From NCBI GenBank assembly GCA_049968255.1, contig JBMFRB010000001.1, forward strand, positions 1 through 64,000: 64,000 nt of DNA, written 5' to 3'. Below are positions 33,839 to 61,594 of the stretch, one piece after another. The stretch is from Candidatus Sumerlaeaceae bacterium (lineage in GTDB: Bacteria; Sumerlaeota; Sumerlaeia; Sumerlaeales; Sumerlaeaceae). The notes below the pieces were generated by a model, which worked only from the letters and a program-made list of their open reading frames with translations, was not told the DNA's origin and did not search any database. Position 1 is the stretch's first letter. Every line of letters starts with the position of its first letter. Position numbers and translations under genes: made by a program.

Positions 33839-36800
33839 ATGCAGCGCGTGTTTATAATGACCCTTGCCATTGTTTGGATATGCGTTGTCACCGTTTACGC
33901 ATCAGCCCCAAGCCCACAACCACTCGAGAAGGCACGCCAAGCGCTAAGCGAACAGTCGTACGCGATCGCAGCGCGTTACTTTGAACAAGCGTTTAGCCAA
34001 CAGCTCGACGAGCCAGAACGCCGCGAAGCGACTTATGGCCGCGCGATTTGTACGCTGAAGCTCGGTGAAACCGAGCAGGCGCGGCAGGCTTTCGAAAAAC
34101 TGCTTCAGGAGCCCCGGGAGGACAAATGGCGCGGCTTAGCCCTTTGGCAGCTCAGTGTGATCCAGGCCCGTGACGGCGTTTCGCCCGACGAGGAGACATC
34201 GCTTAGCAAGCAGATCGAAGAGGCCGATCGAATCATAACCCAAAAAGCTTCTGAGTCTTACGGTGAATTCGCGCGCAGCGTGATTGACGATATTTTCCCT
34301 TATTGGTGGCCGACTCGTGCGAGAGAAAAAGAATTTCAGATTCGCTTCTTCGACAAAACAATCGAGGCCACGAAAAAAGAAGCCGACATCGCCGAGCTGC
34401 ACCGACGCCGCGCAGAATTTCGCTACCAGCGCATGGAAAGCGGAGAGCAAATTTATATCCATGACCTGCGGGCAATCGTGCGGGAGTTCCCCAAGACGTC
34501 GGCAGCCCGACAAGCTCAGCTTAGCATTGCTCATTTAGTGACGCAGCGGGGCAAACTGAAAGCTGCGCTGGAGGAATGGAAACGGCTTGTCGAATTGGGC
34601 CCGGAAAGCGCAGAAGCGCGGGAAGCACAACGCAACATCGAGCAAATCACCAAGGAATTCCTTGATCTAGAGATCAACCCATCAGCGCTGCCAGGCCAAG
34701 CAATCCGCGTGGGTGTGGCTGCACGCAATGTCAACTCGTGCGCCATCGTCCTCTATCGCGTGAAGCCGGAGGAAGCACTCCGTGTCCTTCAGGCGGACCC
34801 ATCCGCCCTCGAAAAGCTCATAAAAACTGACGCTCCTATCGTGACAAAACGAGTGGAGCTTCCAAGACGCGACGATTACCGCGGGACCACGACTTCTGTG
34901 ATCTTCGATCCGGCCCGTCCGACCGAGCACTTCGACAGAGGCATGTATGTTGTCGCGTGCCGGGGAGACAACGCGCGGGCTTATCGCCTTGTGGTTATTG
35001 GGAACCTCACACTAATGGCCACAACAAGCGGACGAGAGCTACATTTCTGGACCGTCACGTCAAGCGATGGGAGGCCACGAACACGCGCACGCCTATTGCT
35101 TTGGCTCGAGGATCAAGGGGCTCGCAAGGTGGGTCGTAAACATCCAAAAGCTGAAAGAAATGAAGAGATCGTTGAACTCACAACTGACGAAAATGGTTTT
35201 GCAAAATTTCAATTCGCGGCGGGAGTGACAAGCACACGTTTTGCTGCAGTGGCACTCGATGGCGACGATTGCGCCTTGCTATCACAGCAATCCACTTACT
35301 TTGAGCCACGTGTGGCTCAGGCAACGTGTTACGTGTATACGGACCGCCCCGCCTACCGCCCGGGCGATAGAGTGTTCTGGCGAGCAATACTGCGCGAGCT
35401 GCAAGAGGGAGATTACAAGCTGCCGAAGAATACCCGGTTCAAGGTTACGGTCATAAGTCCTCGCGGTGAGAAGGCATCGGCGCAAGAATGCGTGGCGAAT
35501 GATTTTGGCACAGCCTCGGGCGAGTGGACCATTGCTTCGGGAGCGTCGCTAGGCCTTTGGCGGATTGCACTGAGCGATAGTAAAGGCACGGAAATCGGCT
35601 CGGCGCAATTTCGCGTTGAGGAATACAAAAAGCCCGAATTCATCGTGACGGTGACAGCGCAAGAGAAGCTGGTGCGGTGGGGCACATCGGTCACCGCTCA
35701 GATTTCTGCGCAGTATTTGTTCGGCGCTCCCGTGGCAAACGCTGCCGTCCATTACACGGTCACAGCACGCCCGCGATATTGGTGGTCCCCCTTAGCACCA
35801 TGGGCAAGAGGCCTCTCATGGTTTGATGGGGATGCGCGTCAAGTTCCTCCGCCTTTGTATTTCGGCGACGGTGTCCGCGTCGCGGAAGGCAAGGCGACGA
35901 CCAACGCCAGCGGCATCTGCTCAGTAAGCTTCCTGGCAAAATGTCCCGAGCGCATGGAGAAACATGAGGTGACGACCTATGATTTTGTTATCACGGCCTC
36001 GGTGACTGACCCTAGCCGAAGAGTCATTGATGGCTCGGCGAGCATTGCTGTGGGGAAAAAAGCGCTCAATGTGAACGTTCGTAGTGAGCGCAGCGTGCTG
36101 TCGCCGGGCGACATGGCCGTCGTCACGATCGAAACCAGAAATATCGGCGGCGACATGGTAGGGGCCAAGGGGACAATCGCTGTCGAAAAACTGACGTGGG
36201 ACGAACTCAAGGGGAACGAGATTCCCACAACGCTCTCCCTTGAGAAAATCGAAGTTCCGCCCAGCGGCGAACTCACGTACCAGTGGCGGTTGCCCAAAGA
36301 CTTGGTTGGTCGAGTGCGCATGCTTTTTATTGCCGAGGACCCGTTTGCTGGCACGAGCGTTGACGCGTGCATTATCAATGTCGCCGATGATCAGACACAG
36401 GACTTGGGTATTCGCTATCAGGGTATTCAGCTCATTCCCAACAAGTCTTCGTATGAAATTGGCGAAACAGCGCGCATCCTCGTACTGTCCGAATACCCTG
36501 AGGTATCGGCGTGGTTCTTTGTGGATACGGGGAGCGGGTTCGTCCTAGAGAAACTAGCGCATTTACGCTACCGCACAAATTTTCTCGAGGTGCCGATTAC
36601 CGAAGCGTACGTGCCCAATGTGCAAATCGCCGTAGCGGCAGTTCGTGGACGGCAGGTTCTCTCGCATCATGTCGAGCTGCTTGTCCCTCCGAAGCGCCGA
36701 ATCCTGCAGGTCGACGTACGCACCGATCGTGACAGCTATCGTCCGCGCGAAAAAGGAACACTCGAAATCAAGGTGCGCTCCTGGGACGGGAAGCCTGTGC

Positions 36801-39376
36801 GCGGAGAGTTCTCAGTCAGCGTTTACGACAAGGCGATTGAGTACATCCAAGCTAGTATGCGTGGAGACGTGCGGCAATTTTTTTACGGCCACAAGCGCCG
36901 CATCTCGGTGGAGATCGCAAACTCACTGGTGGCACCGGCTCTCCACCGCAGCACATTACCCCCGCCTGGTCCCTACGACTATGATCTTTTTGCTTCGATG
37001 GGAAGCGAAAGCGAGCTGGGAAACAATGATTTGCGCGACGTTTTTGTGCGGTCGCGGCGAGCTGAGACTACTCTGATGCCAGCGTCTGCCCCTGACGTCG
37101 CCATGATGAGGGCAGCGGCGAGCAAGGAGCAGCCAGCCGAGGCCAAAGAAAGAGGCGGGGCATTCGCACAGCCTGTTCTTCGTACGGACTTTCGCGACAG
37201 TATTGTGTGGCTGCCAAATGTTGTGACGGACAAAAATGGAATGGCCCACGTCACAGTGACCTTTCCTGACTCACTTACCACGTGGCGAATCGAAGTCGTT
37301 GGTGTGGACGAGAAACATCGCGTTGGTGAAGACTCAACGCTCACGTTGGTGCAGAAAAACATCTCGGCCCGACTGGCTTTGCCTCGCTTCCTCGTGGAAC
37401 GCGATCGCGCTACGGTTTCGGCTATCGTTCGCAACGATTACAGCGACACAAAAACCGTGCTCGTGCATTTCAATGTTGCGGGAGTGGAACTTTCGGATAG
37501 GGACCAGCAGAAACGGGAGCAAGAGCTCGTGATTGCGCCAGCGAGTGAAGCCAGGCTCGACTGGCGCGTGGAAGCAACGCGAGCAGGGACAGCGTCGATG
37601 AGTGTCGTGGCGCTTGCCAGAGAAGAAAGCGACGCCACCGAAACCAGTATTCCCGTCATTGCACACGGCCTCGATAAGAAGGTCTTCCGAGTCGGCTCGA
37701 CTAGCGATATCACGACCGGAACTCGTCGCGTGGAGCACAAAGGCGACGTGTGCGTGATTTCTGATGAAATTTTTGTGCCGTCGCAAAGAATTCTGGAGAG
37801 CTCTCGCCTCGCGCTGCGACTGAGTCCCTCGCTTGCGGCTCAGCTCCGCGACGCCCTCCCCTACCTCGTGGAGTACCCTTACGGGTGCGTCGAGCAGACA
37901 ATGAGCCGATTCTTGCCAGCGGCAATAGTGGCGAAAACCTTCCAGGACCTTGAAATTCCGCGCGACCAGTTTCTGGAAGAGCGTTTGCCGGAGGTACTGC
38001 GTGCAGGCATCGAGCGCCTTCGCGATTTTCAACACAACGATGGATCGTGGGGCTGGTGGAAAGAGGGGCCTACTGATGCATACATGAGCGCTCATGTCAT
38101 GTATGGCCTGACGTTGGCTCGCGAAGCCGATTGCGAGATCCCGGACGAGATGTTGAGCCAAGGACTCGAGTTTCTCTCGCGCAGGGCTCATGCTCTTGCC
38201 GATGCAGGCTGGAGCTCATTGCATGGCTCGCATTACGAGAACCTCCAGGAACTTCATGCGTTGGCGTACGGAACGCTTGTGCTGGCGATGAACAATAAAG
38301 CCGATCGAGAAGCGATGAACCGACTGTGGGAGCAACGCGAAAACTTGTCGCCAGTAGGACTGGCGATGCTTGGCAGAGCACTCGCACTGACTGGCCAAAC
38401 CGAGCGCGCCAACATCGTGTTGCGCAATCTCATGAACTTCGCAGTGGAAATGCCGGACAACGACACGGTTCACTGGGAAAGCCGAACTCAGTCAGGCTGG
38501 TACTGGTGGTGGAACGACAACGTCGAGGCAACATGCCATGCGCTCATGGCCTATCTCGACACTTCGCCGAAGGCTTCGGAAATCGATCGTGCTGTGAAAT
38601 GGCTGGTGCTCAACCGTCGCGGCTCGCAGTGGAAATCAACAAAGGACACAGGATTGGCCGTCATGGCGCTAGCCCAATATCTGAAATTGCGAAGGCCTGA
38701 TGCGCAGCCCACACGGATTGTGGCCAAGTTGGGCGCATTTCCAGAACGCGAATTCAACATCGGACGGGAAAATTTCTTTGCAGCCGCTCCAGACATCATT
38801 CTTGAGGGCAAAGCTGTGCCAGACGGGATCATTCCGCTGCGGTTGGAAGTGGAAGGGCCGGCACCTGTTTACTATGAGCTCACAGCCGAGTACTTTACGC
38901 GCGAAGAGCCAATCACAAGTGCCTCGCACGAATTGGTCGTCGAGCGATCCTACGATATTTGCGTGAAGAGCGAAAAACGCGAAGACGGACACATTGAGGA
39001 CATGTGGGAGCCTCTGCGAGATGGCGACGAGATTCGTTCTGGCGACAAAGTGCGAGTGACTCTTCGGGTCCACGCCTATAACGATTATGAATATCTCGTT
39101 TTCGAGGATCCTAAGCCAGCCGGTTGCGAAGCTGTCGAAATACGTAGCGGCTGGACCTGCGACGACGGGCTTTGCTGCTATCGTGAGATGCGCGACCAAG
39201 TGGTGACATCTTTTGTGGGTCGATTGCCACAGGGCGAGCATCGCCTTTCTTACGAGCTGCGGGCCGAAACGCCGGGAAAATTTCACACATTGCCAGCGCG
39301 CGGCTACGCGATGTACTGCCCCGACCTGTATGGAAGCAGCGACGAGCTTCGCGTGACTGTGCTGGACAGGAAGTAG
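33839..39376 (+). CDS. Bacterial alpha-2-macroglobulin with N-terminal TPRs and intact thioester motif
   Basis: YTDRPAYRPGD (MG2), VEEYKKPEF, RTDFRDSIVWLP...FPDSLTTW, YPYGCVEQT thioester (Cys codon 37886), FQHNDGSWGWW, LRAETPGKF..LPA...MY. Confidence 0.93.
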   Translation: MQRVFIMTLAIVWICVVTVYASAPSPQPLEKARQALSEQSYAIAARYFEQAFSQQLDEPERREATYGRAICTLKLGETEQARQAFEKLLQEPREDKWRGLALWQLSVIQARDGVSPDEETSLSKQIEEADRIITQKASESYGEFARSVIDDIFPYWWPTRAREKEFQIRFFDKTIEATKKEADIAELHRRRAEFRYQRMESGEQIYIHDLRAIVREFPKTSAARQAQLSIAHLVTQRGKLKAALEEWKRLVELGPESAEAREAQRNIEQITKEFLDLEINPSALPGQAIRVGVAARNVNSCAIVLYRVKPEEALRVLQADPSALEKLIKTDAPIVTKRVELPRRDDYRGTTTSVIFDPARPTEHFDRGMYVVACRGDNARAYRLVVIGNLTLMATTSGRELHFWTVTSSDGRPRTRARLLLWLEDQGARKVGRKHPKAERNEEIVELTTDENGFAKFQFAAGVTSTRFAAVALDGDDCALLSQQSTYFEPRVAQATCYVYTDRPAYRPGDRVFWRAILRELQEGDYKLPKNTRFKVTVISPRGEKASAQECVANDFGTASGEWTIASGASLGLWRIALSDSKGTEIGSAQFRVEEYKKPEFIVTVTAQEKLVRWGTSVTAQISAQYLFGAPVANAAVHYTVTARPRYWWSPLAPWARGLSWFDGDARQVPPPLYFGDGVRVAEGKATTNASGICSVSFLAKCPERMEKHEVTTYDFVITASVTDPSRRVIDGSASIAVGKKALNVNVRSERSVLSPGDMAVVTIETRNIGGDMVGAKGTIAVEKLTWDELKGNEIPTTLSLEKIEVPPSGELTYQWRLPKDLVGRVRMLFIAEDPFAGTSVDACIINVADDQTQDLGIRYQGIQLIPNKSSYEIGETARILVLSEYPEVSAWFFVDTGSGFVLEKLAHLRYRTNFLEVPITEAYVPNVQIAVAAVRGRQVLSHHVELLVPPKRRILQVDVRTDRDSYRPREKGTLEIKVRSWDGKPVRGEFSVSVYDKAIEYIQASMRGDVRQFFYGHKRRISVEIANSLVAPALHRSTLPPPGPYDYDLFASMGSESELGNNDLRDVFVRSRRAETTLMPASAPDVAMMRAAASKEQPAEAKERGGAFAQPVLRTDFRDSIVWLPNVVTDKNGMAHVTVTFPDSLTTWRIEVVGVDEKHRVGEDSTLTLVQKNISARLALPRFLVERDRATVSAIVRNDYSDTKTVLVHFNVAGVELSDRDQQKREQELVIAPASEARLDWRVEATRAGTASMSVVALAREESDATETSIPVIAHGLDKKVFRVGSTSDITTGTRRVEHKGDVCVISDEIFVPSQRILESSRLALRLSPSLAAQLRDALPYLVEYPYGCVEQTMSRFLPAAIVAKTFQDLEIPRDQFLEERLPEVLRAGIERLRDFQHNDGSWGWWKEGPTDAYMSAHVMYGLTLAREADCEIPDEMLSQGLEFLSRRAHALADAGWSSLHGSHYENLQELHALAYGTLVLAMNNKADREAMNRLWEQRENLSPVGLAMLGRALALTGQTERANIVLRNLMNFAVEMPDNDTVHWESRTQSGWYWWWNDNVEATCHALMAYLDTSPKASEIDRAVKWLVLNRRGSQWKSTKDTGLAVMALAQYLKLRRPDAQPTRIVAKLGAFPEREFNIGRENFFAAAPDIILEGKAVPDGIIPLRLEVEGPAPVYYELTAEYFTREEPITSASHELVVERSYDICVKSEKREDGHIEDMWEPLRDGDEIRSGDKVRVTLRVHAYNDYEYLVFEDPKPAGCEAVEIRSGWTCDDGLCCYREMRDQVVTSFVGRLPQGEHRLSYELRAETPGKFHTLPARGYAMYCPDLYGSSDELRVTVLDRK

Positions 39377-47259: not shown

Positions 47260-47315
47260 CGTTGATAAATTAATCATAACTAGTTTTCCTTGTGAAGACG
47301 GGGAGGAATCCTGCT

Positions 47316-50300
47316 ATGAAACGGCGTAGTTTAGTGTTAGCACTCACGAGTTTTGCCCGACATGGGTGGGCAACGTTTTTTCTCTGGGCAGCTGTAACAA
47401 CTTCATCTTTCGCTGAAGCGGAGGTCGAGGCCATTCTCACGGCCTATAAGAACGCTGCCACACCACAGGCCAAAGAGGCAGCTCTGAAACAACTCCTCAA
47501 CAATTATGACGCCTACAAGCACCAAGTCGCGCAGAAGCTTGAGTCGGGCGCTATGACTACGGAATTCAAGAGTCTCGCACGAGAGGTCGACGAAAAAATT
47601 GTGGAGATGACCCAGCAAGCATGGCGCGACGTTGTGCGAGGTGACCCAGACGGCGTCACCCATGTGATTCCCGTCGGCTCCCTAGGCAACCGCCTGACCA
47701 ATCCCGCGTATATTCCAGGCAAGAGCGACAAGGACATGATTCCGATGGGCCCGCGCGCGACGGAGAGTGTCGAGAAATTTCGACGCGCGTTCACCTCGCG
47801 GTTTGGGCTCCCTCCTGAAAAGCTCGATATCAACGTCCTCGATCCCACGAACCCTTCTGAGTGGCCTGGCCGCGTGGAGGCAGTAGCAAATCCAGAAAAA
47901 TACAACACTGTGGGCGGAAACAACTGGCTCCAGCGAGATACTTACACCAGAAACCCCACCGTTTGGAAATTAGATCCCACGACGGGAAAAATCCAAGAGT
48001 CGACGTTTCAGTCGCTTTTTCCTAAGGAGACGAAACCGGCCCCGCTGACCACGCGCGACGCGGCGGGATTTTTCAGCGACAATACACGATTTCGTAACGA
48101 GTTGGCGCGCAAGTACAACGATCCAGCTGAGCTCATCCTCAAACAATCCAAATATGACCTGCGAAATGCGGCGGCGTATGGTCTAGCAGGCGGCAAATTT
48201 ACGCGGGAAGAGCAGGCCCTCATGGAAGCCGCCTCGCTCGCAAGAAATGGTAAACTGGACGAAGCCGTTCGTCGTTACGCGGCAGCCATTGGCGCTGATG
48301 CTAGCACAGAAGCGGGAAAGCAGGCAGCAATGAAGGCCTATCTGGAGGGCATGAACTCCCTGACGGAAAAAATTGGCAAGACTGTGGTGGCAACTCATCT
48401 GGACGAGATTGCCAAAGCAGGGAAGAACAGTAAAACGCTGATTGCTGAGCTGGGAGGAGTGCTCAACAATCTACCGCCGAATGTTCGGGAAAACATTGTG
48501 AAAGAGCTAAGCAACGATGTTGGCCGAGCAAACACATTACGGCTTGCTGACCAGGTTGCCAATACGCTGGCCAAAAATGTGTTCATAAAGAAAGCGTTCG
48601 ACGAGGCTGCGCAAAAGCTTTTCGGAAAGCCGTACGAGCAGCTCACCCCTGCGGAGAAGCTGCTTGTCCACAATGCGGGCGAAGAATCCGCGTCGTCGCT
48701 TTCCAAGTTTGGAAAGGGTGCGGGGGTGACCCTCACTGCTGCAGCCATTCTCATCAGCATGCAGCAAGCTTATGCCTCTGAATCTGCCACTCGCGGCACC
48801 GCCATTGGCGTGAGCGCGGGCATCGGGCGAGGAATGCTCGACCTCATCCAACTCGGTTATCCGCCGCTGATCGCCGCGGAGCTTGCAGGACGCGCTGCTG
48901 CCCTAGGCGTCAGCTTTGGGATCGATTCGTACAAGATGGACGTCCTTGATAAACTCTACGAGCAATACAAGCGCACGGGCAACCTTGATGATGTGCTTAG
49001 CGATGCCGAGTTTCAGAAGTATTTTCCGGGCGGACTGCGCGTTTTCCGCAACGAACTCCGGGAGGCTGCAGCTCGCGAAGGCAAGACGCTCACGGAAGAG
49101 CAACTTGATAGGGCCATTCGGGATTATTTTTTCAACCGAGCAGAAATTGATAAGCAGCAAAAAAAGATCGAGCACGATCTTGCTTGGGCGAAGGCCTTCG
49201 TGACAAACCGGCGAATTCCGCTCGTTCTTGGATCAGATTCTGATGTGGATAACGCACAATTGTCCGAGGCAGAAATGGAGCAGGCTTTGGCTGGCCTGCT
49301 GTTGAGGAAATTGCAATTTGAGCAAATGCTGCGAGCCGACGGCGTTCCGTTCACCAAACAGGATATTCTCAGTCTTCTGTTCATAACGTATCGCGGCACG
49401 CCAGATGAGCTCGCAGCCGCCCTAAATCAACTTTATCGCAACGTGGGCAAGTCGTATCCCCCCGGGGCAAAAAGATCTCAAAAACCCAAGGGGACGACAC
49501 AACTCACTGACGGCAAAACGAGTGCGCCAAAGCAGCTCGACAAGAACGCTGTGAAAATCTTGCACGCGAGAAATGCCACTGTTGTTCGAGGTCCCAAAAG
49601 TCAGCAGGGTTGCTCGCCAGGGCTGCTGCTTGGTGGCGGGGGCTCGTTTCCTGAGAAACGTGTGGATACCCCATGCGATCCGCCAATTTCGCTCGGCAGC
49701 ACCGAGGTCTCTTGCGGCGGCGAGTTGCTGGTTGTCCTGGATGTGGACAAACCCGTGAATTCAGGGTGGGTTTGGAATAGTGACACGGCGGTGCGTGTCC
49801 ATTATCAGGCACGCATCAGCGGAAAACTAGGACAAGACGAGCGTCTCGGGGTAGCATCCGGCAGTCCTCCCGACGGTGATTGCTCGATCACACTGACTCT
49901 GCCGGGTCCTGGCAAACTAAGCGCGTATGCTGAGCCCCCGCGCGGTGCCGGCCCACTCACAACACAATGCCTGGGGCAGGGCTTCAATGCTCGTATTGAA
50001 ATGGTAAAGCCATTCAATGAACTGCCGGCCCTGCAAGAGAATCAGCTTCTTCCGGGCGACAAAATTCGAACTGACGCACACCCCTGGAGCCAAGCTGTCC
50101 TCACCACACAGCAAGGAGAGCGAGTCATCGTGAGTGGCGGAGGCAACCAGGTACGCTTGGCAGAGACGGGACGGCAAAGCCAGCAGCTTGTCGTTGAAAG
50201 CGGGTATTATGGCAGCACAATCCGCTATGCACGGCCGAAAAGCGCTGCTTCGAAGCGCGTCGCCGAGCCGCTGACCATACGCGAAGGGGCACATAGTCTT

Positions 50301-53300
50301 CGGCCATCTGGAACAGATTTTCTCGTTGCCCATTTGGGCGTGACAACGACAGTTGCTGTGCTTGAGGGCCGCGTGGACATCGAGGGTGACGACGGATTCA
50401 CGACAACTGTCGCGGAGGGGACGCGGTTCAACTTGCAAGATCGCGGGGGTTCCCCACTCACGCCGAGAGAGAAGAACGATGCACTGACGATGGATGGCTT
50501 CCCACCGGGGAACCTTCCCGATACTCCGGCCGATCTGCCATCGATGGATGTCGGCGCTTATGTCGATGGCAGCAAGATTGAGCCAGGCTGGTTCGTACTC
50601 GACAAAGATGCTGACGCCAAGGTGAGTGCTGAGGAAAGTTCGGATACCTTGCGGTTTGTCGTACCTCCGGGCAACGAACTAAACCGCCGCGAAGTTTCGC
50701 TGCCGCTTTTGTTGCATGCAGTGACCGGAGACTTTGATCTGGAAGGTGAAGTCGACGTCAACACGACTGCCACGGATAACGCTATGGCCTTGCTTGTTGC
50801 TTACCAGCCAGGAGCTTATCTCGGCTTCCACACTGAGCAGCGAGACGCGGAGTGGTACGCGGCGCATTTCGTTTCTTTCGGTGGTTTACAACTGGTGGAC
50901 AAGGTGTGGGAACTGACGACTTTTGAAGGAGAGACTCGTCGCCCTAATTTCGAGACATCCCCCAGTGCGGTGCGTCTCAAGCTCACACGCCGCGGTCATT
51001 TGTGGAAATCCTACGCGTCAGTAGATCACGGTATCACTTGGCATCTGACGAGACGGATGATCATCGATGCGCAACCGACGCTCTATGTAGGTTGGGGCTT
51101 CCAGCGCGCGGCCTATGATCTCCTCGCTGAAGTTCCCGCGGAGTTTAAGCTGCGCAGAGTGCGGCTTGTGTCCGGAGATGCGTCTAGTCTTTCGCAGCAG
51201 GAATGGGACACAAACGCCCTAACAGGCGCGGCGAGCGCTAGTGAAGAGGGGCTAATAGCCACAGCGCTTGCTGATCAAAAGGGTGCATCGCGCGTGGAAA
51301 CAGCGTCGCCGCTGCCGGGCGACTTCGACCTCTGCGCAGAGTATGAAATCCTTGCTTGGCGAAATGCTCGCTACGAAACCACAAACTTCTGTTTCTACAT
51401 TGCCGATGTTGCGCATCAGAACTTCGCGTATATCGGGCGAAGAGCACCACCCAATGAACCCGACCGCTTCCACACAGATCTGCGCCAGGACGGTACGTGG
51501 GGCCGAGGCTATCAGTGGCTCGAGAATGCGGAGAAGAAGGGTATGATTCGTATCCGTCGCGTGGGGAAAGAAATTTCGACGTATTTCTGGGACCGAGATC
51601 ACTGGGAGCGACTCGACAAGGGATTTAACGGGGGCTGGGATTCGCCCGTTTTCGCAGGACTTCTTGTGGCCAACGAGGGCGATCAGGGGCTGCCGGGCAA
51701 TGCGACAGTGCGGCTGCACCTAGTCGACGCCAAGCAGGAAGAAAAGGTTGCGGAGGTACCGCCACCTTCGTCGGACGAAGTGACGATCGTGCCAGCTCCG
51801 TCACCCGTGGCGTCGGACGTCCAGGTGCCTGCTGGATGGGACGTTGCCGCCGTCGAACTGCCATTTGAATCCTCAACCATTTTTCCGGCAAAAGAGGGGG
51901 GAATTTACGTCGTCTCGAATGACCGCAGATATGCGCGCTTGGCACACGTAGCGCACAATCTGCAAGTGACGGACGCGCTAACGACGGATCTTTTCGCTGG
52001 CATCAACCGCAAGGCAGGTTTGGAAAGAACGGAGAGGTTCTGGCTGCTTATCGACGGGTGGTGGGAGGGCGGAAACCGCTACAGCGGTTTGTATCAAGTG
52101 GACCGCCGCGGGGCATGGTTCCGACGGATTGAGTCTGTGGAGCTCGGCGACCTCAGCGCGATGATGGGGATTGGTGACAAAGTCCTGTTTCTTGCCGATT
52201 TTGGGAGAGGAGGAATCTACGCCTATTATCCAGCTGAGGACAAAATGACCGCGTTAATCGAGGGATCACCTGAGCTGCGCGGTGTGGTGAGCTTGGCTTA
52301 TGATTCCAAGCGGGACCTCCTGCTCGCTGCGACCGCAAAATCCCACGGGGCAGAGCAATCGGCGCTATGCCGGATGGATCTGCGACAGAAGCCAGTGCAA
52401 CCTCGAAAAGTTTTTCTGGCCGGACGCGAAAGTGAGGATTTCGTGGGCGTGGTCTGGGACAATACGACGCAAGATCGCGATAACGTGTTGGTTGCAGTTA
52501 CTGCCGAAAACTCGATCTGGCGCGTGAGCCTGAGCACGGCAAAAGCTGAGGTGGTGGTGCGGGGAATCCCTACGATCGCAGCGTTGCGATGGTCTGGCAA
52601 TGCGCTGTGGGCTATGTGCACCCCACGAACCCTCATTCGGTTGACTCCCCCGCAGATATCCATTGCGCAGAGTGAGACAGCAGGTGTGCCCCCTCAGGAT
52701 GTCGCAGTGGGAAAGCCCACTTCCCTGCCGACACAACCGGAAGCTCCATCAGGGGGAAGGAGAGACGGAGTCACCCAAGCTTCTCCGACTAGCGAACGTC
52801 CGCGTGAACCAGAGCCTGCAAGAAAGACTCCAGCAGCTCCTCCCCCAAGCGAGCCCAAAGAATTTGTTTTTCATTCGCCCAAAGAGAGCGTGCGTCTGCT
52901 GGATTCTTATCCCACATCTGACTTTATGCTGGGGTTTTCTCTGTCTTGGACGAAGAGCGGAAGTGTCTTCGACACCATCGGCATAGATGCGGCGCCCACG
53001 GGATCCTGGTCTGTAAATGTTGAGCCTACGGGGTACCTAACCTTTGGCGTCTACGCCCCACAGGTGTCGAGTGCAGTCCGCGCGTCCAATGGTTGGCATG
53101 TCCTACGCACCGCGAAAACCTTATCTAGGGAACGGCCTGTCCAGGTGCGAATCATTCATCTCCCTTCCGCAACAACACAGATTTATCTCGAGAACGAGTT
53201 GGTGGCAGAAGAGAGAATTCCTGCGCCCCTTTCGGGCAAACCTGTTTATCTCGGTGATTATGCGCCCGATGCCCATTGGGCTCCCCGATATCCCACAGAG

Positions 53301-53906
53301 CGCGGATTTGTGGGCCGGCTAAAAATCTATTATTTGGGTAAGTCGGTGCGTCAGACGGATGCGCCACCTGTGAGGAAGACGCCATATGTTGAGCCAGTGG
53401 GGAGCTTTGGCGGAAAGGCGCAGCCCCCAGCCAGTGGAATAGATCTGAGAGCTTTTGCGGGACTTTGGCAGATTGTTGCCGAAGGGGAACCTTCCAAGGA
53501 AAAGGAGTTCATCGTGCTTCGCGTGGTGGATGGAAAAGTCATGGGGAAGGGAGGCACTCAAGAGGATCTTCTGGAGTTCGACAAATTCGAACAAAATCAG
53601 CTCAGAGGACGCGTGGTTCCGTCAAAGGGGACTGACGCCTTGCCCGTGACGGCATCTTTGAACAGCGATGGAACCGTGCTCACACTGAAAATAGCTCCTC
53701 CCGCCAGCGAGTTCGTGATCGTGCGAGCCATCAAAGTGCGCGACGCTGCTGAGAAAGCTGAACAGAGAAAAAAGCTTCAGCAGGAACTCAAAGAGGCTCA
53801 GGAGCTTTATCGATTGGCGATCGAAAAGGGAACGGACGAGGAGCTCAAGGAGGCTAAGCGAGCAGTGGACGAGATCGAGCGACAACTCCAACGGTTGAGG
53901 GAATGA
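47316..53906 (+). CDS. Giant (~2196 aa) predicted secreted multidomain protein: NTase-like motif, hydrophobic helical segment, FecR-like domain, tentative ConA-like and beta-propeller domains
   Basis: Uninterrupted ORF; SD GGAGG at 47302-47306; signal peptide ending SSFA-E; VGS...SDKD motif; GDKIRT...GTDFLV...TVAVLEGRV FecR signature. Confidence 0.8.
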   Translation: MKRRSLVLALTSFARHGWATFFLWAAVTTSSFAEAEVEAILTAYKNAATPQAKEAALKQLLNNYDAYKHQVAQKLESGAMTTEFKSLAREVDEKIVEMTQQAWRDVVRGDPDGVTHVIPVGSLGNRLTNPAYIPGKSDKDMIPMGPRATESVEKFRRAFTSRFGLPPEKLDINVLDPTNPSEWPGRVEAVANPEKYNTVGGNNWLQRDTYTRNPTVWKLDPTTGKIQESTFQSLFPKETKPAPLTTRDAAGFFSDNTRFRNELARKYNDPAELILKQSKYDLRNAAAYGLAGGKFTREEQALMEAASLARNGKLDEAVRRYAAAIGADASTEAGKQAAMKAYLEGMNSLTEKIGKTVVATHLDEIAKAGKNSKTLIAELGGVLNNLPPNVRENIVKELSNDVGRANTLRLADQVANTLAKNVFIKKAFDEAAQKLFGKPYEQLTPAEKLLVHNAGEESASSLSKFGKGAGVTLTAAAILISMQQAYASESATRGTAIGVSAGIGRGMLDLIQLGYPPLIAAELAGRAAALGVSFGIDSYKMDVLDKLYEQYKRTGNLDDVLSDAEFQKYFPGGLRVFRNELREAAAREGKTLTEEQLDRAIRDYFFNRAEIDKQQKKIEHDLAWAKAFVTNRRIPLVLGSDSDVDNAQLSEAEMEQALAGLLLRKLQFEQMLRADGVPFTKQDILSLLFITYRGTPDELAAALNQLYRNVGKSYPPGAKRSQKPKGTTQLTDGKTSAPKQLDKNAVKILHARNATVVRGPKSQQGCSPGLLLGGGGSFPEKRVDTPCDPPISLGSTEVSCGGELLVVLDVDKPVNSGWVWNSDTAVRVHYQARISGKLGQDERLGVASGSPPDGDCSITLTLPGPGKLSAYAEPPRGAGPLTTQCLGQGFNARIEMVKPFNELPALQENQLLPGDKIRTDAHPWSQAVLTTQQGERVIVSGGGNQVRLAETGRQSQQLVVESGYYGSTIRYARPKSAASKRVAEPLTIREGAHSLRPSGTDFLVAHLGVTTTVAVLEGRVDIEGDDGFTTTVAEGTRFNLQDRGGSPLTPREKNDALTMDGFPPGNLPDTPADLPSMDVGAYVDGSKIEPGWFVLDKDADAKVSAEESSDTLRFVVPPGNELNRREVSLPLLLHAVTGDFDLEGEVDVNTTATDNAMALLVAYQPGAYLGFHTEQRDAEWYAAHFVSFGGLQLVDKVWELTTFEGETRRPNFETSPSAVRLKLTRRGHLWKSYASVDHGITWHLTRRMIIDAQPTLYVGWGFQRAAYDLLAEVPAEFKLRRVRLVSGDASSLSQQEWDTNALTGAASASEEGLIATALADQKGASRVETASPLPGDFDLCAEYEILAWRNARYETTNFCFYIADVAHQNFAYIGRRAPPNEPDRFHTDLRQDGTWGRGYQWLENAEKKGMIRIRRVGKEISTYFWDRDHWERLDKGFNGGWDSPVFAGLLVANEGDQGLPGNATVRLHLVDAKQEEKVAEVPPPSSDEVTIVPAPSPVASDVQVPAGWDVAAVELPFESSTIFPAKEGGIYVVSNDRRYARLAHVAHNLQVTDALTTDLFAGINRKAGLERTERFWLLIDGWWEGGNRYSGLYQVDRRGAWFRRIESVELGDLSAMMGIGDKVLFLADFGRGGIYAYYPAEDKMTALIEGSPELRGVVSLAYDSKRDLLLAATAKSHGAEQSALCRMDLRQKPVQPRKVFLAGRESEDFVGVVWDNTTQDRDNVLVAVTAENSIWRVSLSTAKAEVVVRGIPTIAALRWSGNALWAMCTPRTLIRLTPPQISIAQSETAGVPPQDVAVGKPTSLPTQPEAPSGGRRDGVTQASPTSERPREPEPARKTPAAPPPSEPKEFVFHSPKESVRLLDSYPTSDFMLGFSLSWTKSGSVFDTIGIDAAPTGSWSVNVEPTGYLTFGVYAPQVSSAVRASNGWHVLRTAKTLSRERPVQVRIIHLPSATTQIYLENELVAEERIPAPLSGKPVYLGDYAPDAHWAPRYPTERGFVGRLKIYYLGKSVRQTDAPPVRKTPYVEPVGSFGGKAQPPASGIDLRAFAGLWQIVAEGEPSKEKEFIVLRVVDGKVMGKGGTQEDLLEFDKFEQNQLRGRVVPSKGTDALPVTASLNSDGTVLTLKIAPPASEFVIVRAIKVRDAAEKAEQRKKLQQELKEAQELYRLAIEKGTDEELKEAKRAVDEIERQLQRLRE

Positions 53907-54096: not shown

Positions 54097-54630
54097 ATGA
54101 GTTTGTGGGTAACCGCGTACTTGGGACTAGGGGCAAATTTGCCTCTCACTCAAAGTCCTGACCGCACGTTGTGTCTTGCGTGTGCGCGATTGCGCTGTAC
54201 CTTTGGGGTACATCTGGCGAAAGTTTCGTCGCTCTACCGAAGCAAACCCTGGGGAGAAACCAATCAGCCCGAATTTTACAACGCGGTGGTCAGGATTGAG
54301 ACGATGCTCTCACCGCGAGAGCTGCTCGGAGCTGTGAAAAACATCGAGCGCGAGCTGGGGAGAACTCCTACATATCGGTGGGGGCCGCGGGTTATTGATA
54401 TCGACATTCTTTTGTATGGCGACAGTGAAATCGATGAGAGTGACCTCATGATTCCGCATCGCCATTTGCTGGAACGCCCCTTTGCTTATGTGCCACTTAT
54501 CGAAATTGCCCCAGAGGCCACATTGCCCGACGGGCTTCCACTCGTCCTTGCTGTAGCCAAAACTCATGCGGACAATGGGGAGCTGGAAAAACTAGGGAGC
54601 TTGGCGCGTGAGGTAGAGAAAATATGTGGG

Positions 54631-54642
<12 letters not shown>
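54097..54642 (+). CDS. folK: 2-amino-4-hydroxy-6-hydroxymethyldihydropteridine diphosphokinase
   Basis: AYLGLGAN, SSLYRSKPWG...QPEFYNAV, IERELGR, WGPRVIDIDIL, IPH...ERPF. Confidence 0.95.
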
Positions 54643-54708
<66 letters not shown>

Positions 54709-54831
54709 ACACGTTGCGTAATCGCATACAGAATTGAGAACACACTATTCGCTAGCCCTAGTGGAGACAAGGGGTGAAGAAAGCTGTAGGAAATGATGAT
54801 GTTTCTGCGGTACTTCGTGTAAGAAGGAAGT

Positions 54832-54942
54832 GTTACGCCGGGGGAGGCCGCAAGGCCTGAGAACGAGCCGGCGCAGAGACATGCCAACGGCTCGAACCCC
54901 TTGAACCTGATACGGGTAATGCCGGCGGAGGGAAGGCGTAAC
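54832..54942 (+). ncRNA. TPP riboswitch
   Basis: P1 GTTACGCC/GGCGTAAC, GGGG...CTGAGA, CCCTTGAACCTGAT.CGGGTAATGCCGGCGGAGGGA core; directly upstream of thiC. Confidence 0.96.
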
Positions 54943-54986
54943 GGAATGTTCCCCCCTGGAAACCGGCCACCCCACACATTGCTTGA

Positions 54987-56906
<1,920 letters not shown>

Positions 56907-56979: not shown

Positions 56980-58176
56980 TTACTCTGGCATGAGCGCCGG
57001 ATTGCGAACAAGGGACACATAAGGTAGGAAAACCGCCACAGCGAGGAATCCAACAGCAAGGCCCAGAAAAATGATGAGAAGAGGCTCAAGAATGGAGCTG
57101 AGCCCTTTGAGCGCCACATCCACTTCGCTATCGTAGGTATCGGCGATTTTCAACAGCATTGTGTCGAGAGCTCCCGCCTCGTCACCGACCATCACCATAT
57201 CAATGACCAGTGCGTCAAAAATTGGCGTGCTGCGCATTGGCTCATCCATTTTGCCGCCTTTTTCCACAGTATCGCGCACTTTGAGAAGCGTGCGGCGAAC
57301 GACTTCGTTGTCCGCTGTGTCTGCGGTGATGGCTAAGGCGTCAATGAGCGGGATCCCTGCAGCCGTGAGATTGCCAAGCGTGCGCGCAAAGCGCTCGACG
57401 TTGATCTTACGAATAAGGGGTCCTACCAGTGGCAGACGCAGCGCGATGGACTGGGTAAATGCGCGGCCTGCCGGTGAACGACGCACAAGCCAGCAAAGGA
57501 TAATGATGCCCACCACAATAAGTAAGACGAGCAGCCAATTCGCTGCAAACCACGAGGCAAACCCCATAAGGGCGCGCGTGATTGCTGGGAGATCCTCCGG
57601 TTTGGGATACGCTGCGACGAGTTTTGGCAGCGCATAGATCATGATGAGCGCGATGATAACGATTTCGAGCATGAGGGCAATGAGCGGATAAATCATCGCC
57701 CCGACGACGCGTCGCCGAATCTCGGCGTTGCGCTCTAACAGGTCGGCCAAGTGGCGCAACGAGATGTCGAGGATTCCGCCTGCTTCGCCCGTCCGGACCA
57801 CACTCACAAAGAGTGGCGAAAACACGCGGGGATGCTGAGCCATCGCCAAGCTCAAGGACTGCCCTTCTTCAAGCCGCCGAGCTAAATCTGCGCTAATGGC
57901 TCGCAGCTTCTTGTGAGCGCTTCGCTCTGCAAGAATTTGTAGCGACTTGACGAGCGGCACGCCGACATCAACGAGGGTAGCTAGCTGACGGCAATAGGCA
58001 GCCATTTGCCTCGCTCCGACCCCGAGAAATCCTCCCCCCGCGCGAGGGGCGCCCTTAGCAGGCGGCGCGGCGGACACAGGGCCTCTCGTCGATTCGCCCT
58101 GCTCTTTGAGCCGCTGTAGTATTTCATCCTTCAGAGATGTACTCGCATTTTTGGCTTCTTGCTTTTTCTCTGCCAT
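56980..58176 (-). CDS. Type II secretion F / type IV pilus PilC platform protein
   Basis: RQLATLVDVGVPL, GEAGGILD, AMIYP, GDEAGALDTML, LEP. Confidence 0.93.
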   Translation of the reverse strand: MAEKKQEAKNASTSLKDEILQRLKEQGESTRGPVSAAPPAKGAPRAGGGFLGVGARQMAAYCRQLATLVDVGVPLVKSLQILAERSAHKKLRAISADLARRLEEGQSLSLAMAQHPRVFSPLFVSVVRTGEAGGILDISLRHLADLLERNAEIRRRVVGAMIYPLIALMLEIVIIALIMIYALPKLVAAYPKPEDLPAITRALMGFASWFAANWLLVLLIVVGIIILCWLVRRSPAGRAFTQSIALRLPLVGPLIRKINVERFARTLGNLTAAGIPLIDALAITADTADNEVVRRTLLKVRDTVEKGGKMDEPMRSTPIFDALVIDMVMVGDEAGALDTMLLKIADTYDSEVDVALKGLSSILEPLLIIFLGLAVGFLAVAVFLPYVSLVRNPALMPE

Positions 58177-58245
58177 TGTTATCCCTCACTGTCTGGTCGG
58201 GTAACGACAAGGTAAGCGACACCTTACCCCGTCCATCTTCCCCGC

Positions 58246-60501
58246 CTAGAATATCGTCACCGCTTTGATCATTTCTGAAGGGGTTGTGATGCCCTTCAAA
58301 ACTTTCTCTAGACCGGCTTCGAAGAGCCGTTTTCCGAACTTGTCGGCTAGTGTGCGCAAGTCGTCTTCGCTCACACCGTCCGCAATTGCGCGCCGAATCT
58401 CCGGGCGCACTTCGATGACTTCGAAAATGCCGGTGCGTCCCTTGAATCCAGTCCGCAAGCACGAGGGGCATCCCTCCCCCCGATAGAAGCGCTTGCGCGA
58501 ATTTTCCGGCAGACCAAGCTCGGCAAGCATCCCCTTGGAGGGCGTGAATGGCTTCTTGCATTGCTCGCAGTTCTTGCGCACGAGACGCTGCGCAATGATG
58601 CCAGAGACAGCCGCAGCGATGAGGTAACGATCGATACCAAGATGCGATAGTGCACTCACCGCCCCGACCGCCGTGTTCGTGTGCAGTGTCGAGAAGACCA
58701 AATGCCCCGTGAGCGCTGCACGAATCGCTGTGGCCGCCGTATCAGAATCGCGTATCTCGCCAACCATGATAATATCTGGGTCCTGCCGCAAAGCGCTGCG
58801 CAGTCCGGCGGCAAAAGTGAGTTCTATGTTCGGATCCACCTGCACCTGTGTGATGCCCGAAAGCTGATACTCGACGGGATCCTCGATCGTTATAATGTTA
58901 ACACCTTCACGATTCACCGTTGAAAGGCAGGCATAAAGAGTTGATGTCTTTCCGCTGCCGGTGGGCCCTGTGACAAGAACAAGCCCATAGGGTCGGGCGA
59001 TGAGTCGTTCGACAGCTTTCAGTTGCTCCTCATCGAGTCCCAACTGATCAAGGCCCGTGAGCACGCGTGTGCTATCGAGCACTCGCATGACAATCGTTTC
59101 GCCATAAATGGAAGGCAAGGTGGAGATGCGAAAATCAAAAGTCCCGTTTTCGGTGTCGAGCGTGAAGTGGCCGTCTTGCGGACGCCGCCGCTCTGTTACG
59201 TTCATCGAGGCTAAAACCTTAATGCGCGATGCAACACTTAGGTGCATTTCCGCAGGAATACGTAGGATGTTATGCAAGACACCATCGATGCGGTAGCGTA
59301 CGCGCACTTCTTCGGCCTGGGGTTCAAGGTGGATATCGGTCGCACCGGCGGCAATGGCGCTTTCCATGATTTGCGTGACGAGCTGAACGGTGGAAAGATT
59401 GTCCACATAGGGCTCGGGCCGGCTGCGCCGTGGCTCCGGCGCGGCAACTGGGGCCCGCTTAGCCTCATAGCCTTCCGCCATCGGGGTTGGGCGAACTTGT
59501 TCGTCTTTCGGCATTGGGCGCACTACTCGTTTGACCGTCGGTGGTGGTAAAGTGGCCAAACGATCGCCACCTTTGGTACCGCCCAGAACTGGCAGCGCCT
59601 CGAACTTTGCCAGAAGATCCTGATGCGGACTGTAAATTGGCGACACGCGCCGATCAGTAAGAAATGCCAGGGTGTCGCAGAGCGACATATTGAAGGGATC
59701 GGCTGTTGCAATTTCGAGGACACGGTCTTGGAATGCTAACGGCAGGAAAAGCTGGCGACGCATGAAGTCCACAGGAAAACGTTCGATAAGTTCGGGCGAA
59801 ATATCGTAAGCCAGAATCTCGATCATGGGCAGCTCAACGCCTTTTTCGAGGGCTTCGAGCAGCTCATCCTGACTCAGCAGGCCAAGTTCTTCGAGTGTGC
59901 GCGACAATGGAGCTTTTGTGATGGCCCGGCTCTCGAGCGCGCGGCTGAAATCTTCTCGCGTAATGAGATTGTTGAAGACGAGAATGTCACCAGCAAGGAG
60001 CATGCGATTGTCCACCGCGAAGTCGGTAGATTTCGCCCTCACCACTTTCTCGAGCGTCTCGGGGGTAACCACTCCTTCTGCCACGAAAACGTCATACACG
60101 TTTAGGGCGTTGCGCTCGGCGCGATCGAGCGCTGCCTCGATCTGCGAGAGTTCCACCAACCCGAGCGAGAGGAGAATCTTTCCGAGCTTGGCAATATCAG
60201 GCTGATTCTGACGAAGGATATGGGCTACTTCGCCCGGATAGATTTTGACAGGTGCGCTGAGTTCCTCCTCAAGTTTGCGCGCGGCTTTGCTTCCCGGCAC
60301 AAGCGCCCGCAAATCCATGTACATGAGATCTTTGAAAGCGGCAAGGGAGACTTCCTGGTTGAGAATCTCCATGACCCCTTTCACCGTACTAAGTCCCGCC
60401 CGTTTGGCGAACCCCTCCCAGTGGGGTTCGTCGAGGACAGTGGCCTCGCGCAGCACCAAGGCGATACGAATGATTTTCTCGTTGGTTCGCAGCTCGCTCA
60501 A
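58246..60501 (-). CDS. GspE/PilB-family assembly ATPase with extended N-terminus
   Basis: ATDIHLEP, RYRIDG, PQDG, Walker A GPTGSGKT, TIEDPVE, LRQDPD, GHLVFSTLHTN, tetracysteine motif; TTG start overlaps the upstream stop. Confidence 0.94.
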   Translation of the reverse strand: MSELRTNEKIIRIALVLREATVLDEPHWEGFAKRAGLSTVKGVMEILNQEVSLAAFKDLMYMDLRALVPGSKAARKLEEELSAPVKIYPGEVAHILRQNQPDIAKLGKILLSLGLVELSQIEAALDRAERNALNVYDVFVAEGVVTPETLEKVVRAKSTDFAVDNRMLLAGDILVFNNLITREDFSRALESRAITKAPLSRTLEELGLLSQDELLEALEKGVELPMIEILAYDISPELIERFPVDFMRRQLFLPLAFQDRVLEIATADPFNMSLCDTLAFLTDRRVSPIYSPHQDLLAKFEALPVLGGTKGGDRLATLPPPTVKRVVRPMPKDEQVRPTPMAEGYEAKRAPVAAPEPRRSRPEPYVDNLSTVQLVTQIMESAIAAGATDIHLEPQAEEVRVRYRIDGVLHNILRIPAEMHLSVASRIKVLASMNVTERRRPQDGHFTLDTENGTFDFRISTLPSIYGETIVMRVLDSTRVLTGLDQLGLDEEQLKAVERLIARPYGLVLVTGPTGSGKTSTLYACLSTVNREGVNIITIEDPVEYQLSGITQVQVDPNIELTFAAGLRSALRQDPDIIMVGEIRDSDTAATAIRAALTGHLVFSTLHTNTAVGAVSALSHLGIDRYLIAAAVSGIIAQRLVRKNCEQCKKPFTPSKGMLAELGLPENSRKRFYRGEGCPSCLRTGFKGRTGIFEVIEVRPEIRRAIADGVSEDDLRTLADKFGKRLFEAGLEKVLKGITTPSEMIKAVTIF

Positions 60502-60956
60502 TGATTGGCCTCCCTTGATGGTTTGGCTGCATCAGCCACGAGTATAGGCGTCGCACCTGGACGGATAGCGTAAAGTGCCACTCGCCCCACGGCCACATTG
60601 CGGCGCTCAGGAACTGCCCGCAGCACCACGAATTGGGCCCCTCGCAGCGACTCATTGTTGGGAACAGCTGATTCGGTACGGGAAGCGACGATCTTCGCGG
60701 CGCCCGCAACCTCACAAATCTCCACCGCGCCCTGCGATTTCGTCACGCGCTCAAACACAGACACATCTTTTGACACCATTTCGGCAGCACTTCGCAAAAG
60801 ATGGGATAGCTCGCGCTGCGCAGCTCGATGCTTAGTGTAACGAAAGGTGAGATCAACGCTCAGCGCTAGGCCGAATACCAGAATTCCCAAGATTGCAAGA
60901 ATGCCTATGGTGGTGAGCAACACGAATGCGCGATTGGACTTTGATTTCATTATCAT
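60498..60956 (-). CDS. GspK/PilX-like minor pilin (short)
   Basis: KSNRA|FVLLTTIGILAIL, a class III-like signal lacking Glu5; ATGA coupling to the upstream pilin. Confidence 0.55.
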   Translation of the reverse strand: MIMKSKSNRAFVLLTTIGILAILGILVFGLALSVDLTFRYTKHRAAQRELSHLLRSAAEMVSKDVSVFERVTKSQGAVEICEVAGAAKIVASRTESAVPNNESLRGAQFVVLRAVPERRNVAVGRVALYAIRPGATPILVADAAKPSREANH

Positions 60957-61594
60957 CGCATTTTCACCCATAACTCGGTCTCAGCGTAACGAGGCGCTCT
61001 TGCTTTCTGCGCCTCTTCGAACGTGGCCATGCCAGGTAGGCGGGGCCACACATGGACAACCACTTTGGCAAGCAGTGGCTCGGTGCTCGTGACATCCCTC
61101 CACTGTGGCGTGAAATCTTTGATCTCTTCGGCGTATGCAAACGACACTTCAGCGCAGAAAGCGTCGCTATTCGTGCCAAGAATCTGCTTCTTGGCGCCTC
61201 TGTCGTCTCCCGCTGTAAGAACAACACGGCGGCGCTCAATATCGTTGGACACATGCACGCTTCGCAGTGCGGCAGGGAGATTCCCTCTTTCTATCGCAGT
61301 GGCTAGTGCAGGCGCTTTTTCTTTTGTCTGAGCTGGCTGAAGGCCAGTGAAGATCACCTCCTCAGCTGCAAATTTTTCGCCTTTTTCCCCTGCCACACGC
61401 GACAGGAAAAGCTTCTCTATCTGCTGGGCGATGGTTTGGGCTTCGCGTGCCGCCACCAGTTGGTCGCTCACTGCATTTGTTGCTCGCACAGTCTCGATGT
61501 AGGCGTCGAGTGCCAGACCTAATATCACGACGGTGAGAGCGACCACTATGAGTGCTTCCACTAACGTGTAGGCTTTGCATTTTTTTTCTCTCAT
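60953..61594 (-). CDS. Prepilin-type protein (GspJ/PilW-like)
   Basis: KCKA|YTLVEALIVVALTVVILG N-methylation-type leader with Glu5. Confidence 0.72.
   Translation of the reverse strand: MREKKCKAYTLVEALIVVALTVVILGLALDAYIETVRATNAVSDQLVAAREAQTIAQQIEKLFLSRVAGEKGEKFAAEEVIFTGLQPAQTKEKAPALATAIERGNLPAALRSVHVSNDIERRRVVLTAGDDRGAKKQILGTNSDAFCAEVSFAYAEEIKDFTPQWRDVTSTEPLLAKVVVHVWPRLPGMATFEEAQKARAPRYAETELWVKMR

Follow-up and report, generated by a model that had tools for sequence, protein, structure and literature searches.

Nucleotidyltransferases (NTases) of the Pol-beta superfamily need nucleoside triphosphates (NTPs) and are almost always cytoplasmic. What would a protein with the signature residues of such an enzyme do if it were built for export? 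The question is raised by a giant gene in the window analyzed here, which is the whole 64,000-nucleotide stretch of contig JBMFRB010000001.1 (assembly GCA_049968255.1, positions 1 to 64,000 of the forward strand) from a Candidatus Sumerlaeaceae bacterium. For its 2196-residue product, the first-pass annotation had proposed a signal peptide, a Pol-beta-type NTase motif near the N-terminus and the modular layout of a toxin. We read the N-terminal head of the protein (residues ~40-460) as the founding member of a previously unclassified family of Pol-beta-type NTases, a new and exported branch of a known superfamily. The head is filed as a new family of this superfamily because the hidden Markov model (HMM) of every curated family fails to match it. 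The positions of all features are collected in Table 1.

The conservation of the proposed active site was determined in a 58-row alignment that includes fragments, with gaps excluded from the counts. The coordinates given earlier for G121-S122, D138-K-D140, D171 and D176 were found to be exact, and the GS and DxD motif is conserved throughout the family, far more than chance would allow. G121 is kept in 56/56 rows and Ser or Thr at position 122 in 55/56, while S137, D138 and D140 are kept in 55/55 rows each. D92, which precedes the motif, is kept in 54/54 rows, and R126 and Y132, within the spacer, in 48/54 and 50/55, respectively. Farther downstream, E194, Y196, K279, Y280 and R283 are kept in 54/54 rows each, and K195 in 52/54. 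The first-pass annotation had noted as a caveat that the residue between the two aspartates is Lys rather than hydrophobic. This concern is answered because the position is unconstrained: residue 139 is Lys in 40 of 55 rows and Tyr, Leu, Arg, Val, Asp, Ile or Thr in the others. The residues after the second Asp are hydrophobic (Phe, Met, Leu, Ile or Tyr, followed by Ile or Val). The invariant set of G-S, S-D-x-D, E194, K279 and R283 spans four phyla at 20-45% overall identity.

The proposal of a third catalytic Asp within LDINVLD fared less well. D171 is kept in 38/53 rows (with Gly in 8, Lys in 4 and Gln in 3) and D176 in 45/55, and Gly, Ser, Thr or Ala takes the place of the candidate residues in a distant clade, in contrast to the invariance of E194, Y196, K279, Y280 and R283. 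E194, being invariant, might act as a stand-in for the third carboxylate.

The structure of residues 40-460 was predicted by AlphaFold2 with the 58-row alignment, and the model has a mean predicted local distance difference test (pLDDT) score of 94.0 and a predicted template modeling (pTM) score of 0.87. It consists of helices up to residue 109, a strand at 116-120 (HVIPV), a short helix at 121-125 that begins with G121-S122, a strand at 139-144 with D138/D140, a helix at 148-163 and a strand at 172-174 that follows D171. Two helices, a beta-hairpin at 215-230 and further helices up to residue 459 complete the model. According to PMC2794190, hG[GS] opens the second core helix of the Pol-beta-type NTase fold, while strand 2 bears [DE]h[DE]h and strand 3 bears h[DE]h, and the model agrees with this placement. 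In the model, V120-G121-S122 stands at the junction of the strand at 116-120 and the helix at 121-125, and D138-K-D140-M agrees with the strand-2 pattern except at the "h" between the two aspartates, which is Lys here. L170-D171-I172 lies at the strand 172-174 and is aligned with the third Asp of MNT-type proteins, although D171 itself is kept in only 38 of 53 rows.

NTase superfamily families were found at the top of two structure searches. The weak matches returned by Foldseek include CD-NTases, TUTases, NF45/NF90, an MNT (probability 0.82) and the Sulfolobus NTase 2rff (0.90). Language-model look-alikes of a homolog fragment and of residues 85-345 fall in clusters that are named nucleotidyltransferase or carry PF01909, at 0.85-0.90; these serve as leads only.

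Profiles were compared with hhalign without predicted secondary structure, using NTase templates from two phyla. The full N-terminal domain against 21 MNT-type proteins gave a probability of 0.6% and a different register. In global mode all three motifs were collinear with those of the MNT template, but equally high scores were obtained with 6 of 150 column-permuted templates. Since permuted templates matched the MNT global score, we give preference to the trimmed comparisons and to those with GlnD/GlnE, which were run with decoys. Against GlnD, higher scores were obtained with more diverse templates. The score against GlnD from five Sumerlaeota sequences was 22.5, which was reached by 2 of 100 permutations; with one planctomycete sequence added to the GlnD template it was 30.0, and against 35 GlnD/GlnE domains the full N-terminal domain scored 28.9 (E 0.0056, probability 6.6%). 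For the templates scoring 30.0 and 28.9, none of 60 permutations scored as high as the real alignment, the permuted means were 15.1 (standard deviation 2.5) and 12.2 (standard deviation 1.8), and the reversed templates scored 11.9 and 13.3, respectively.

The signal comes from residues 69-179, which extend from the D92 helix through strand 1, G-[ST]-x-G-x-R and S-D-x-D to the helix that follows. This segment scored 26.5 against the NTase part of GlnD/GlnE (E 7.5e-4, probability 25%) and 21.3 against MNT (E 0.0042), with GS, SDxD and LDI/VDL in register. The remainder of GlnD/GlnE reached 12.2, and the six decoys, alignments taken from other regions of the same protein family, reached 8.0-11.9 (E 0.24-0.78). 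The backing that the profile comparison gives to NTase kinship is real but modest, and by sequence profile the head is closest to the GlnD/GlnE protein-nucleotidylyl transferases. Model, structure-search matches and controlled profile comparison together bear out the earlier assignment of the N-terminal domain to the Pol-beta NTases, and the head very probably has an NTase fold.

By the predicted structure, the head is built like the ANT/KNTase-AadA-LinB group: an NTase alpha/beta core is followed by a helical bundle, in the arrangement of ANT(4')/KNTase, AAD(9), AadA and LinB. The aminoglycoside and lincosamide NTases used for this comparison were ANT(4')/KNTase (1kny, 6p06), AAD(9) (6sxj, 6xz0), AadA (4cs6), ANT(3'')(9) (7uy4) and LinB (3jyy). 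Unlike the exported head, these are stand-alone cytoplasmic enzymes of ~250 residues without a signal peptide, and HMMER found no sequence similarity between them and the head. Relative to these NTases, the head has ~80 extra N-terminal helical residues, a longer spacer between GS and DxD (15 residues) and ~100 further helical residues, and it is fused to ~1700 residues of other modules.

The kinship with GlnD and GlnE, which are cytoplasmic regulators, is limited to the core. The nearest systems of this kind are GlnD/GlnE (GlnE N-domain, 1v4a) and the GlnE-like domain of DrrA/SidM (6yx5). Residues 180-369, after the core, gave no signal against GlnD/GlnE (E 0.32), and a Pfam scan at E <= 10 found no PF08335-type domain in the head. 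The Legionella effector DrrA relies for its delivery on a type IV system and not on a signal peptide. As for the MNTs of HEPN-MNT toxin-antitoxin pairs (8xeh, 8xeo, 7bxo; PF01909) and 2rff, the PF01909 HMM does not match the head; in the genome it finds a GlnD-like gene only. The HEPN motif is Rx4-6H, and none was seen on reading the sequence of the helical bundle. The giant protein also differs from the MNT pairs in not being part of a two-gene cytoplasmic module.

The head family is rare but widely scattered. A word-indexed search with residues 1-700 as the query returned 21 proteins with 37-100% identity. When residues 40-760 were compared by phmmer with 1.84 billion cluster representatives, only 43 proteins were matched at E <= 1e-3 (24 of them at E <= 1e-30), and we therefore regard the family as rare. 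When one genome per species was scanned with a pattern, 20 loci were located: 2 in Sumerlaeota, 13 in Chloroflexota, 3 in Planctomycetota, 1 in Desulfarculus and 1 unclassified. The Chloroflexota loci are from Anaerolineae, Chloroflexia, Caldilineaceae, Leptolinea and Flexilinea, including Flexilinea flocculi strain TC1. Of 75 Sumerlaeota genomes, 3 are matched by the N-domain profile, and these belong to a single genus. A tree of 21 N-terminal domains places the three Sumerlaeota rows in a starred clade, with which the long branches of the Desulfarculus row and of the unclassified row are grouped; the other clade is a mixture of Chloroflexota and Planctomycetota. This patchy distribution suggests lateral transfer. 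In the 3.1-Mb, 31-contig genome the giant gene is single-copy, and a search of its six-frame open reading frames (ORFs) with the core HMM found neither a paralog nor a weak NTase match.

The signal peptide proposed for the giant protein was found to be a trait of the family. The N-terminus contains KRR, the hydrophobic segment WATFFLWAAV and a putative cleavage site at SFA/E. A simple heuristic was applied to the 46 homologs that start with Met and have the motif at position 70 or later; it asks for Lys or Arg before an 11-residue window with a Kyte-Doolittle (KD) value of at least 2.0 within the first 70 residues. A signal-peptide-like N-terminus was identified in 38 of the 46, and several of the 8 misses resemble truncated start calls. 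All identifiable modules fused to the head are of extracytoplasmic types (FecR, DUF1349, PKD, CarboxypepD_reg, Sel1, TPR, PDZ and the TolB-like propeller). When 27 homologs were searched against NCBIfam, no NTase family was matched, and signals for sorting or anchoring were likewise absent. The K-R-R-S-L-V-L start (47319-47327) resembles a twin-arginine motif, and TatC is encoded in the genome (G000:C2:367067-367882). Export by the Tat pathway was considered and is unlikely; the Arg pair is absent from the N-terminus of the nearest ortholog, for which reason we regard Sec as the likelier route, TatC notwithstanding.

Behind the head, the protein is composed of a conserved helical region and a series of beta-modules. 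On the whole 2196-residue protein, Pfam and NCBIfam gave FecR at E 0.25 only. Of the downstream segments named in the first-pass annotation, the Pro-rich linker was confirmed, the propeller was recovered through a family profile and the LamG-like segment through a homolog; the protein's own propeller and LamG-like segments have no Pfam match. The FecR-like domain and the first of the two beta-sandwiches score below the family cut-offs, and the second sandwich is weak. FecR was nevertheless matched by 11 of 21 family members at E <= 0.01 (best E 3.6e-8; homolog P0028 at 42.1 bits, above the cut-off), and DUF1349 likewise by 11 of 21 at E <= 0.01.

The modules are shuffled, as the first-pass annotation had suggested might be checked. 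Two proteins of sister genera, L004 (1486-6804, minus strand, 1772 residues) and L005 (1468-6702, minus strand, 1744 residues), share with the giant protein residues ~580/737-2010, comprising the jelly-roll, FecR, ConA-like sandwiches, propeller and LamG, at ~30% identity. In L004 the NTase head is replaced by a signal peptide and ~430 residues of coiled coil. Since the sister genera keep the body with another head, head and body are independent modules. Conversely, the head stands on other bodies in other phyla: eight distant members have only residues ~46-376 in common and carry, for example, PKD or CarboxypepD_reg. In comparisons with four orthologs, residues 116-700 are 62-87% identical, the body domains 34-73% and the linkers 11-68%.

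Next to the core, the helical region is the most conserved part of the protein (62-87% identity to the orthologs). Its Gly/Ala/Ser/Thr-rich hydrophobic hairpin was modeled with pLDDT values of 37-77, compared with values above 85 for residues ~541-710. The hairpin may be buried, may insert conditionally into a membrane or may serve as an anchor. As a separate observation, residues ~489-501 (48780-48818), inside the hairpin, read G-TAI-G-VSA-G-I-G-R-G, a small-residue repeat of the GxxxGxxxG type, and small-xxx-small-xxx-small patterns occur 2-12 times per protein in the hairpin region of 37 homologs.

What, then, would the protein do? The interpretation we prefer, at a probability of roughly 45%, is that of an exported enzyme that binds NTP-Mg2+ and, directed by its body to a surface or a polymer, donates a nucleoside monophosphate to an extracytoplasmic hydroxyl acceptor. 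The head would leave the cytoplasm by Sec export. It would bind NTP-Mg2+ through G121-S122 and D138/D140, together with D171 or E194 and with K279, Y280 and R283, and would pass the nucleoside monophosphate to the hydroxyl of an extracytoplasmic protein, glycan or small molecule. Tethering the head to a cell surface or a polymer, or pointing it there, would be the part of the helical region and of the beta-modules (jelly-roll, FecR, two ConA-like, propeller and LamG-like).

Several observations weigh against this interpretation. A classical third carboxylate is absent in 15 of 53 rows, and the hhalign probabilities for the head against the NTase templates are just 7-25%. Foldseek gave 0 matches for the head in the PDB at E <= 1e-3, HMMER with the sequence and two profiles found no match for the head in the PDB, and Pfam at E <= 10 on 21 N-domain sequences returned scattered chance matches and no recurrent family. 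The signal segment of the giant protein itself is weakly hydrophobic, with a best 11-residue KD window of 1.46, a low score because the segment is rich in Trp and Phe. Finally, NTPs are scarce outside the cytoplasm, and the supply of nucleotide there is the weak point of this interpretation.

The alternative that survives best is one in which the head keeps the NTase fold to bind a metal together with a nucleotide or another phospho-ligand, or for structural purposes only, within a scaffold protein of the surface or periplasm. The exported location speaks against NTP turnover, the absence of the third carboxylate from 15 of 53 rows would be in keeping with a loss of catalysis, and the body looks like the scaffold of an adhesin or a sensor (FecR/Lsa33-like, TolB-like and TPR). 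Such a head would have a parallel in the inactive NTase-fold families, perhaps ATP-binding only, that PMC2794190 describes, MMP37 among them. However, according to the same source, inactive members of the MMP37 type retain one carboxylate only, whereas the invariant G-S, S-D-x-D, E194, K279 and R283 of the head form the pattern of an active site and not that of a relic. We consider a noncatalytic head unlikely, though it is the likeliest of the alternatives.

A second alternative is a single-chain AB-type toxin, in which the beta-modules would bind a target cell, the hairpin region would insert and the NTase would enter the target cytoplasm. There, drawing on the NTPs of the target, it would modify a protein by nucleotidylylation or synthesize a nucleotide signal; the choice of target would fall to the swappable C-terminal modules. 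The order of enzyme, translocation and binding parts is that of the single-chain AB toxins, such as diphtheria toxin, the large clostridial toxins and the clostridial neurotoxins, and a corresponding order of putative enzyme, helical region with hydrophobic hairpin and binding-type modules is seen directly in the giant protein. Delivery into another cell would solve the supply of NTPs, the head is found on interchangeable bodies, and a producer that lacks the target could do without an immunity gene. The hairpin is conserved as a hydrophobic element, with a best 19-residue KD window of at least 1.2 in 31 of 37 homologs, and its low-confidence model is as would be expected for a mobile segment. 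Yet a KD value of at least 1.6 is reached in just 16 of the 37, and charged residues are present in all. The likeness to AB toxins extends to the order of parts alone. No homology of any part was found, and Pfam scans identified no autoprotease or furin-like processing module. Neither a translocation-domain likeness nor a fold assignment for the helical region was obtained from fold searches on a second AlphaFold2 model, which were dominated by the beta-sandwich and barely covered helical residues 421-710. Across phyla, the neighborhoods of head homologs contain no conserved partner, immunity-like or secretion gene, and PADLOC returned nothing useful. By their record titles, the carriers are free-living organisms from sludge, soil, lake and similar metagenomes, with no link to host association. 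We judge an AB toxin to be improbable; if true, it would be a new class of AB toxin from free-living Chloroflexota, Planctomycetota and Sumerlaeota.

Least probable is that the NTase likeness is convergent or spurious, with a new alpha/beta fold whose acidic metal site (for example, a Ca2+ site or a hydrolase) mimics GS/DxD: the hhalign probabilities below 26%, the 0.6% of the first full-length comparison with MNT in a different register and the 6 of 150 permuted templates that equal the real score in global mode would allow it, but four independent lines speak against it. The order and spacing of the motifs fit the NTase superfamily, each motif lies on the expected secondary-structure element of the AlphaFold2 model, NTase families top two structure searches, and the profile scores of two NTase families exceed those of all six decoys.

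Table 1. Features of the giant gene and its upstream neighbor in the window. Residue numbers are those of the giant protein; entries marked (a) were read from the sequence.
Feature	Position	Strand	Remarks
Upstream ORF, 414 residues	46015..47259	+	predicted multi-pass membrane protein; hydrophobic segments visible in the translation
Shine-Dalgarno-like GGGGAGGAA	47300..47308	+	7 nt 5' of ATG 47316 (a)
Giant gene	47316..53906	+	ATG 47316; 2196 residues plus stop
Signal-peptide-like N-terminus, residues 1-33	47316..47414	+	MKRRSLVLALTSFARHGWATFFLWAAVTTSSFA/EAE; putative cleavage after SFA
NTase alpha/beta core, residues ~82-235	47559..48020	+	alpha1 with D92, strand 1 HVIPV, VGS, strand 2 with D138/D140, alpha3, strand 3 with D171
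G121-S122, hG[GS] motif	47676..47681	+	start of short helix after strand 1 (AlphaFold2)
D138-K139-D140, [DE]x[DE] motif	47727..47735	+	on strand 2; invariant S137 precedes
D171 in LDI, candidate third carboxylate	47826..47828	+	strand 3; aligned with third Asp of MNT-type NTases (hhalign)
D176, other candidate third Asp of the first-pass annotation	47841..47843	+	(a)
E194-K195-Y196, acidic/aromatic motif	47895..47903	+	loop after core; putative role
Helical bundle, residues ~243-361	48042..48398	+	resembles HEPN-like second domain of ANT-type NTases
Invariant K279, Y280, R283	48150-48164	+	in helical bundle
Conserved helical region, residues ~362-710	48399..49445	+	all-helical (AlphaFold2)
Gly/Ala/Ser/Thr-rich hydrophobic helical hairpin, residues 455-545	48678-48950	+	AlphaFold2, low confidence
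Disordered basic, Pro-containing linker, residues ~711-767	49446..49616	+	AlphaFold2 pLDDT <50 at model residues 305-342
Jelly-roll beta-sandwich, residues ~768-899	49617..50012	+	pre-peptidase C-terminal / collagen-binding-domain / carbohydrate-binding-module type
FecR-like domain, residues 934-1020	50115..50375	+	PF04773 E 0.0016, 19.3 bits, segment alone; cut-off 24
DUF1349-like (ConA-like) beta-sandwich 1	50607..51098	+	PF07081 E 1e-4, 22.5 bits; cut-off 32.4
Second, weaker sandwich of DUF1349-like kind	51171..51731	+	BLASTP against sandwich 1 E 0.037, only around GDFDL; DUF1583 E 0.08
Beta-propeller-like region, residues ~1506-1779	51831..52652	+	family profile matches PknD sensor propeller 1rwi, E 7.9e-4
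Pro-rich linker	52653..52865	+	16 Pro in residues 1801-1900
LamG/ConA-like segment, residues ~1851-2010	52866..53345	+	aligned region of homolog L004 matches Laminin_G_3, E 6.5e-8
C-terminal charged helix, coiled-coil-like	53736..53903	+	(a)

The reading frame of the giant gene is open on the plus strand from a GTG at 47292 to 53906, and the ATG at 47316, 7 nt past GGGGAGGAA, is the likely start. The upstream 414-residue ORF, which has no Pfam match, may belong to one operon with the giant gene, from which it is separated by 56 nt. The synteny of this membrane-protein gene extends to the two further genomes of the genus, with 55% identity in one and 24.5% over a contig-end fragment in the other, but it does not adjoin the head homologs of other phyla. 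The flanks of the other 18 loci vary and include ROK, GT2, DUF362, RtcB, rhamnosidase and LacI-type regulators, among others.

Downstream of the giant gene lies folK. A 365-residue ORF without a Pfam match (54564-55661, minus strand) overlaps folK and thiC on the opposite strand and is probably no real gene. Genes for type II secretion or a type IV pilus (56980-61594, minus strand) lie 3 kb downstream and encode a GspF-like protein, an MshE/GspE-like ATPase and a prepilin-type N-methylation protein; these were kept out of the evidence because they are not conserved beside the homologs elsewhere. Elsewhere in the window, 33839-39376 (plus strand) encodes an 1845-residue bacterial alpha-2-macroglobulin-like protein (MG2, bait region, TED and MG10) with an N-terminal TPR region.

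In the literature on Sumerlaeota and on secreted, periplasmic and extracellular NTases, no exported bacterial NTase family was among the matches listed, which does not prove its absence from print; nor does any of the listed Sumerlaeota titles or abstract openings deal with the giant protein. The family described here is found in four phyla, with an apparently intact NTase active site behind a signal peptide and on large extracytoplasmic binding scaffolds. One of its carriers, Flexilinea flocculi TC1, is the record of a named strain, and the family is thus open to experiment. If the head is active, it would carry out nucleotidyl transfer outside the cytoplasm, either AMPylation-like or for the synthesis of a nucleotide signal, or the giant proteins would be delivery proteins that carry an enzyme into another cell. 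Either outcome, if true, would be a new kind of secreted enzyme and would give a handle on the uncharacterized giant proteins of poorly known phyla.

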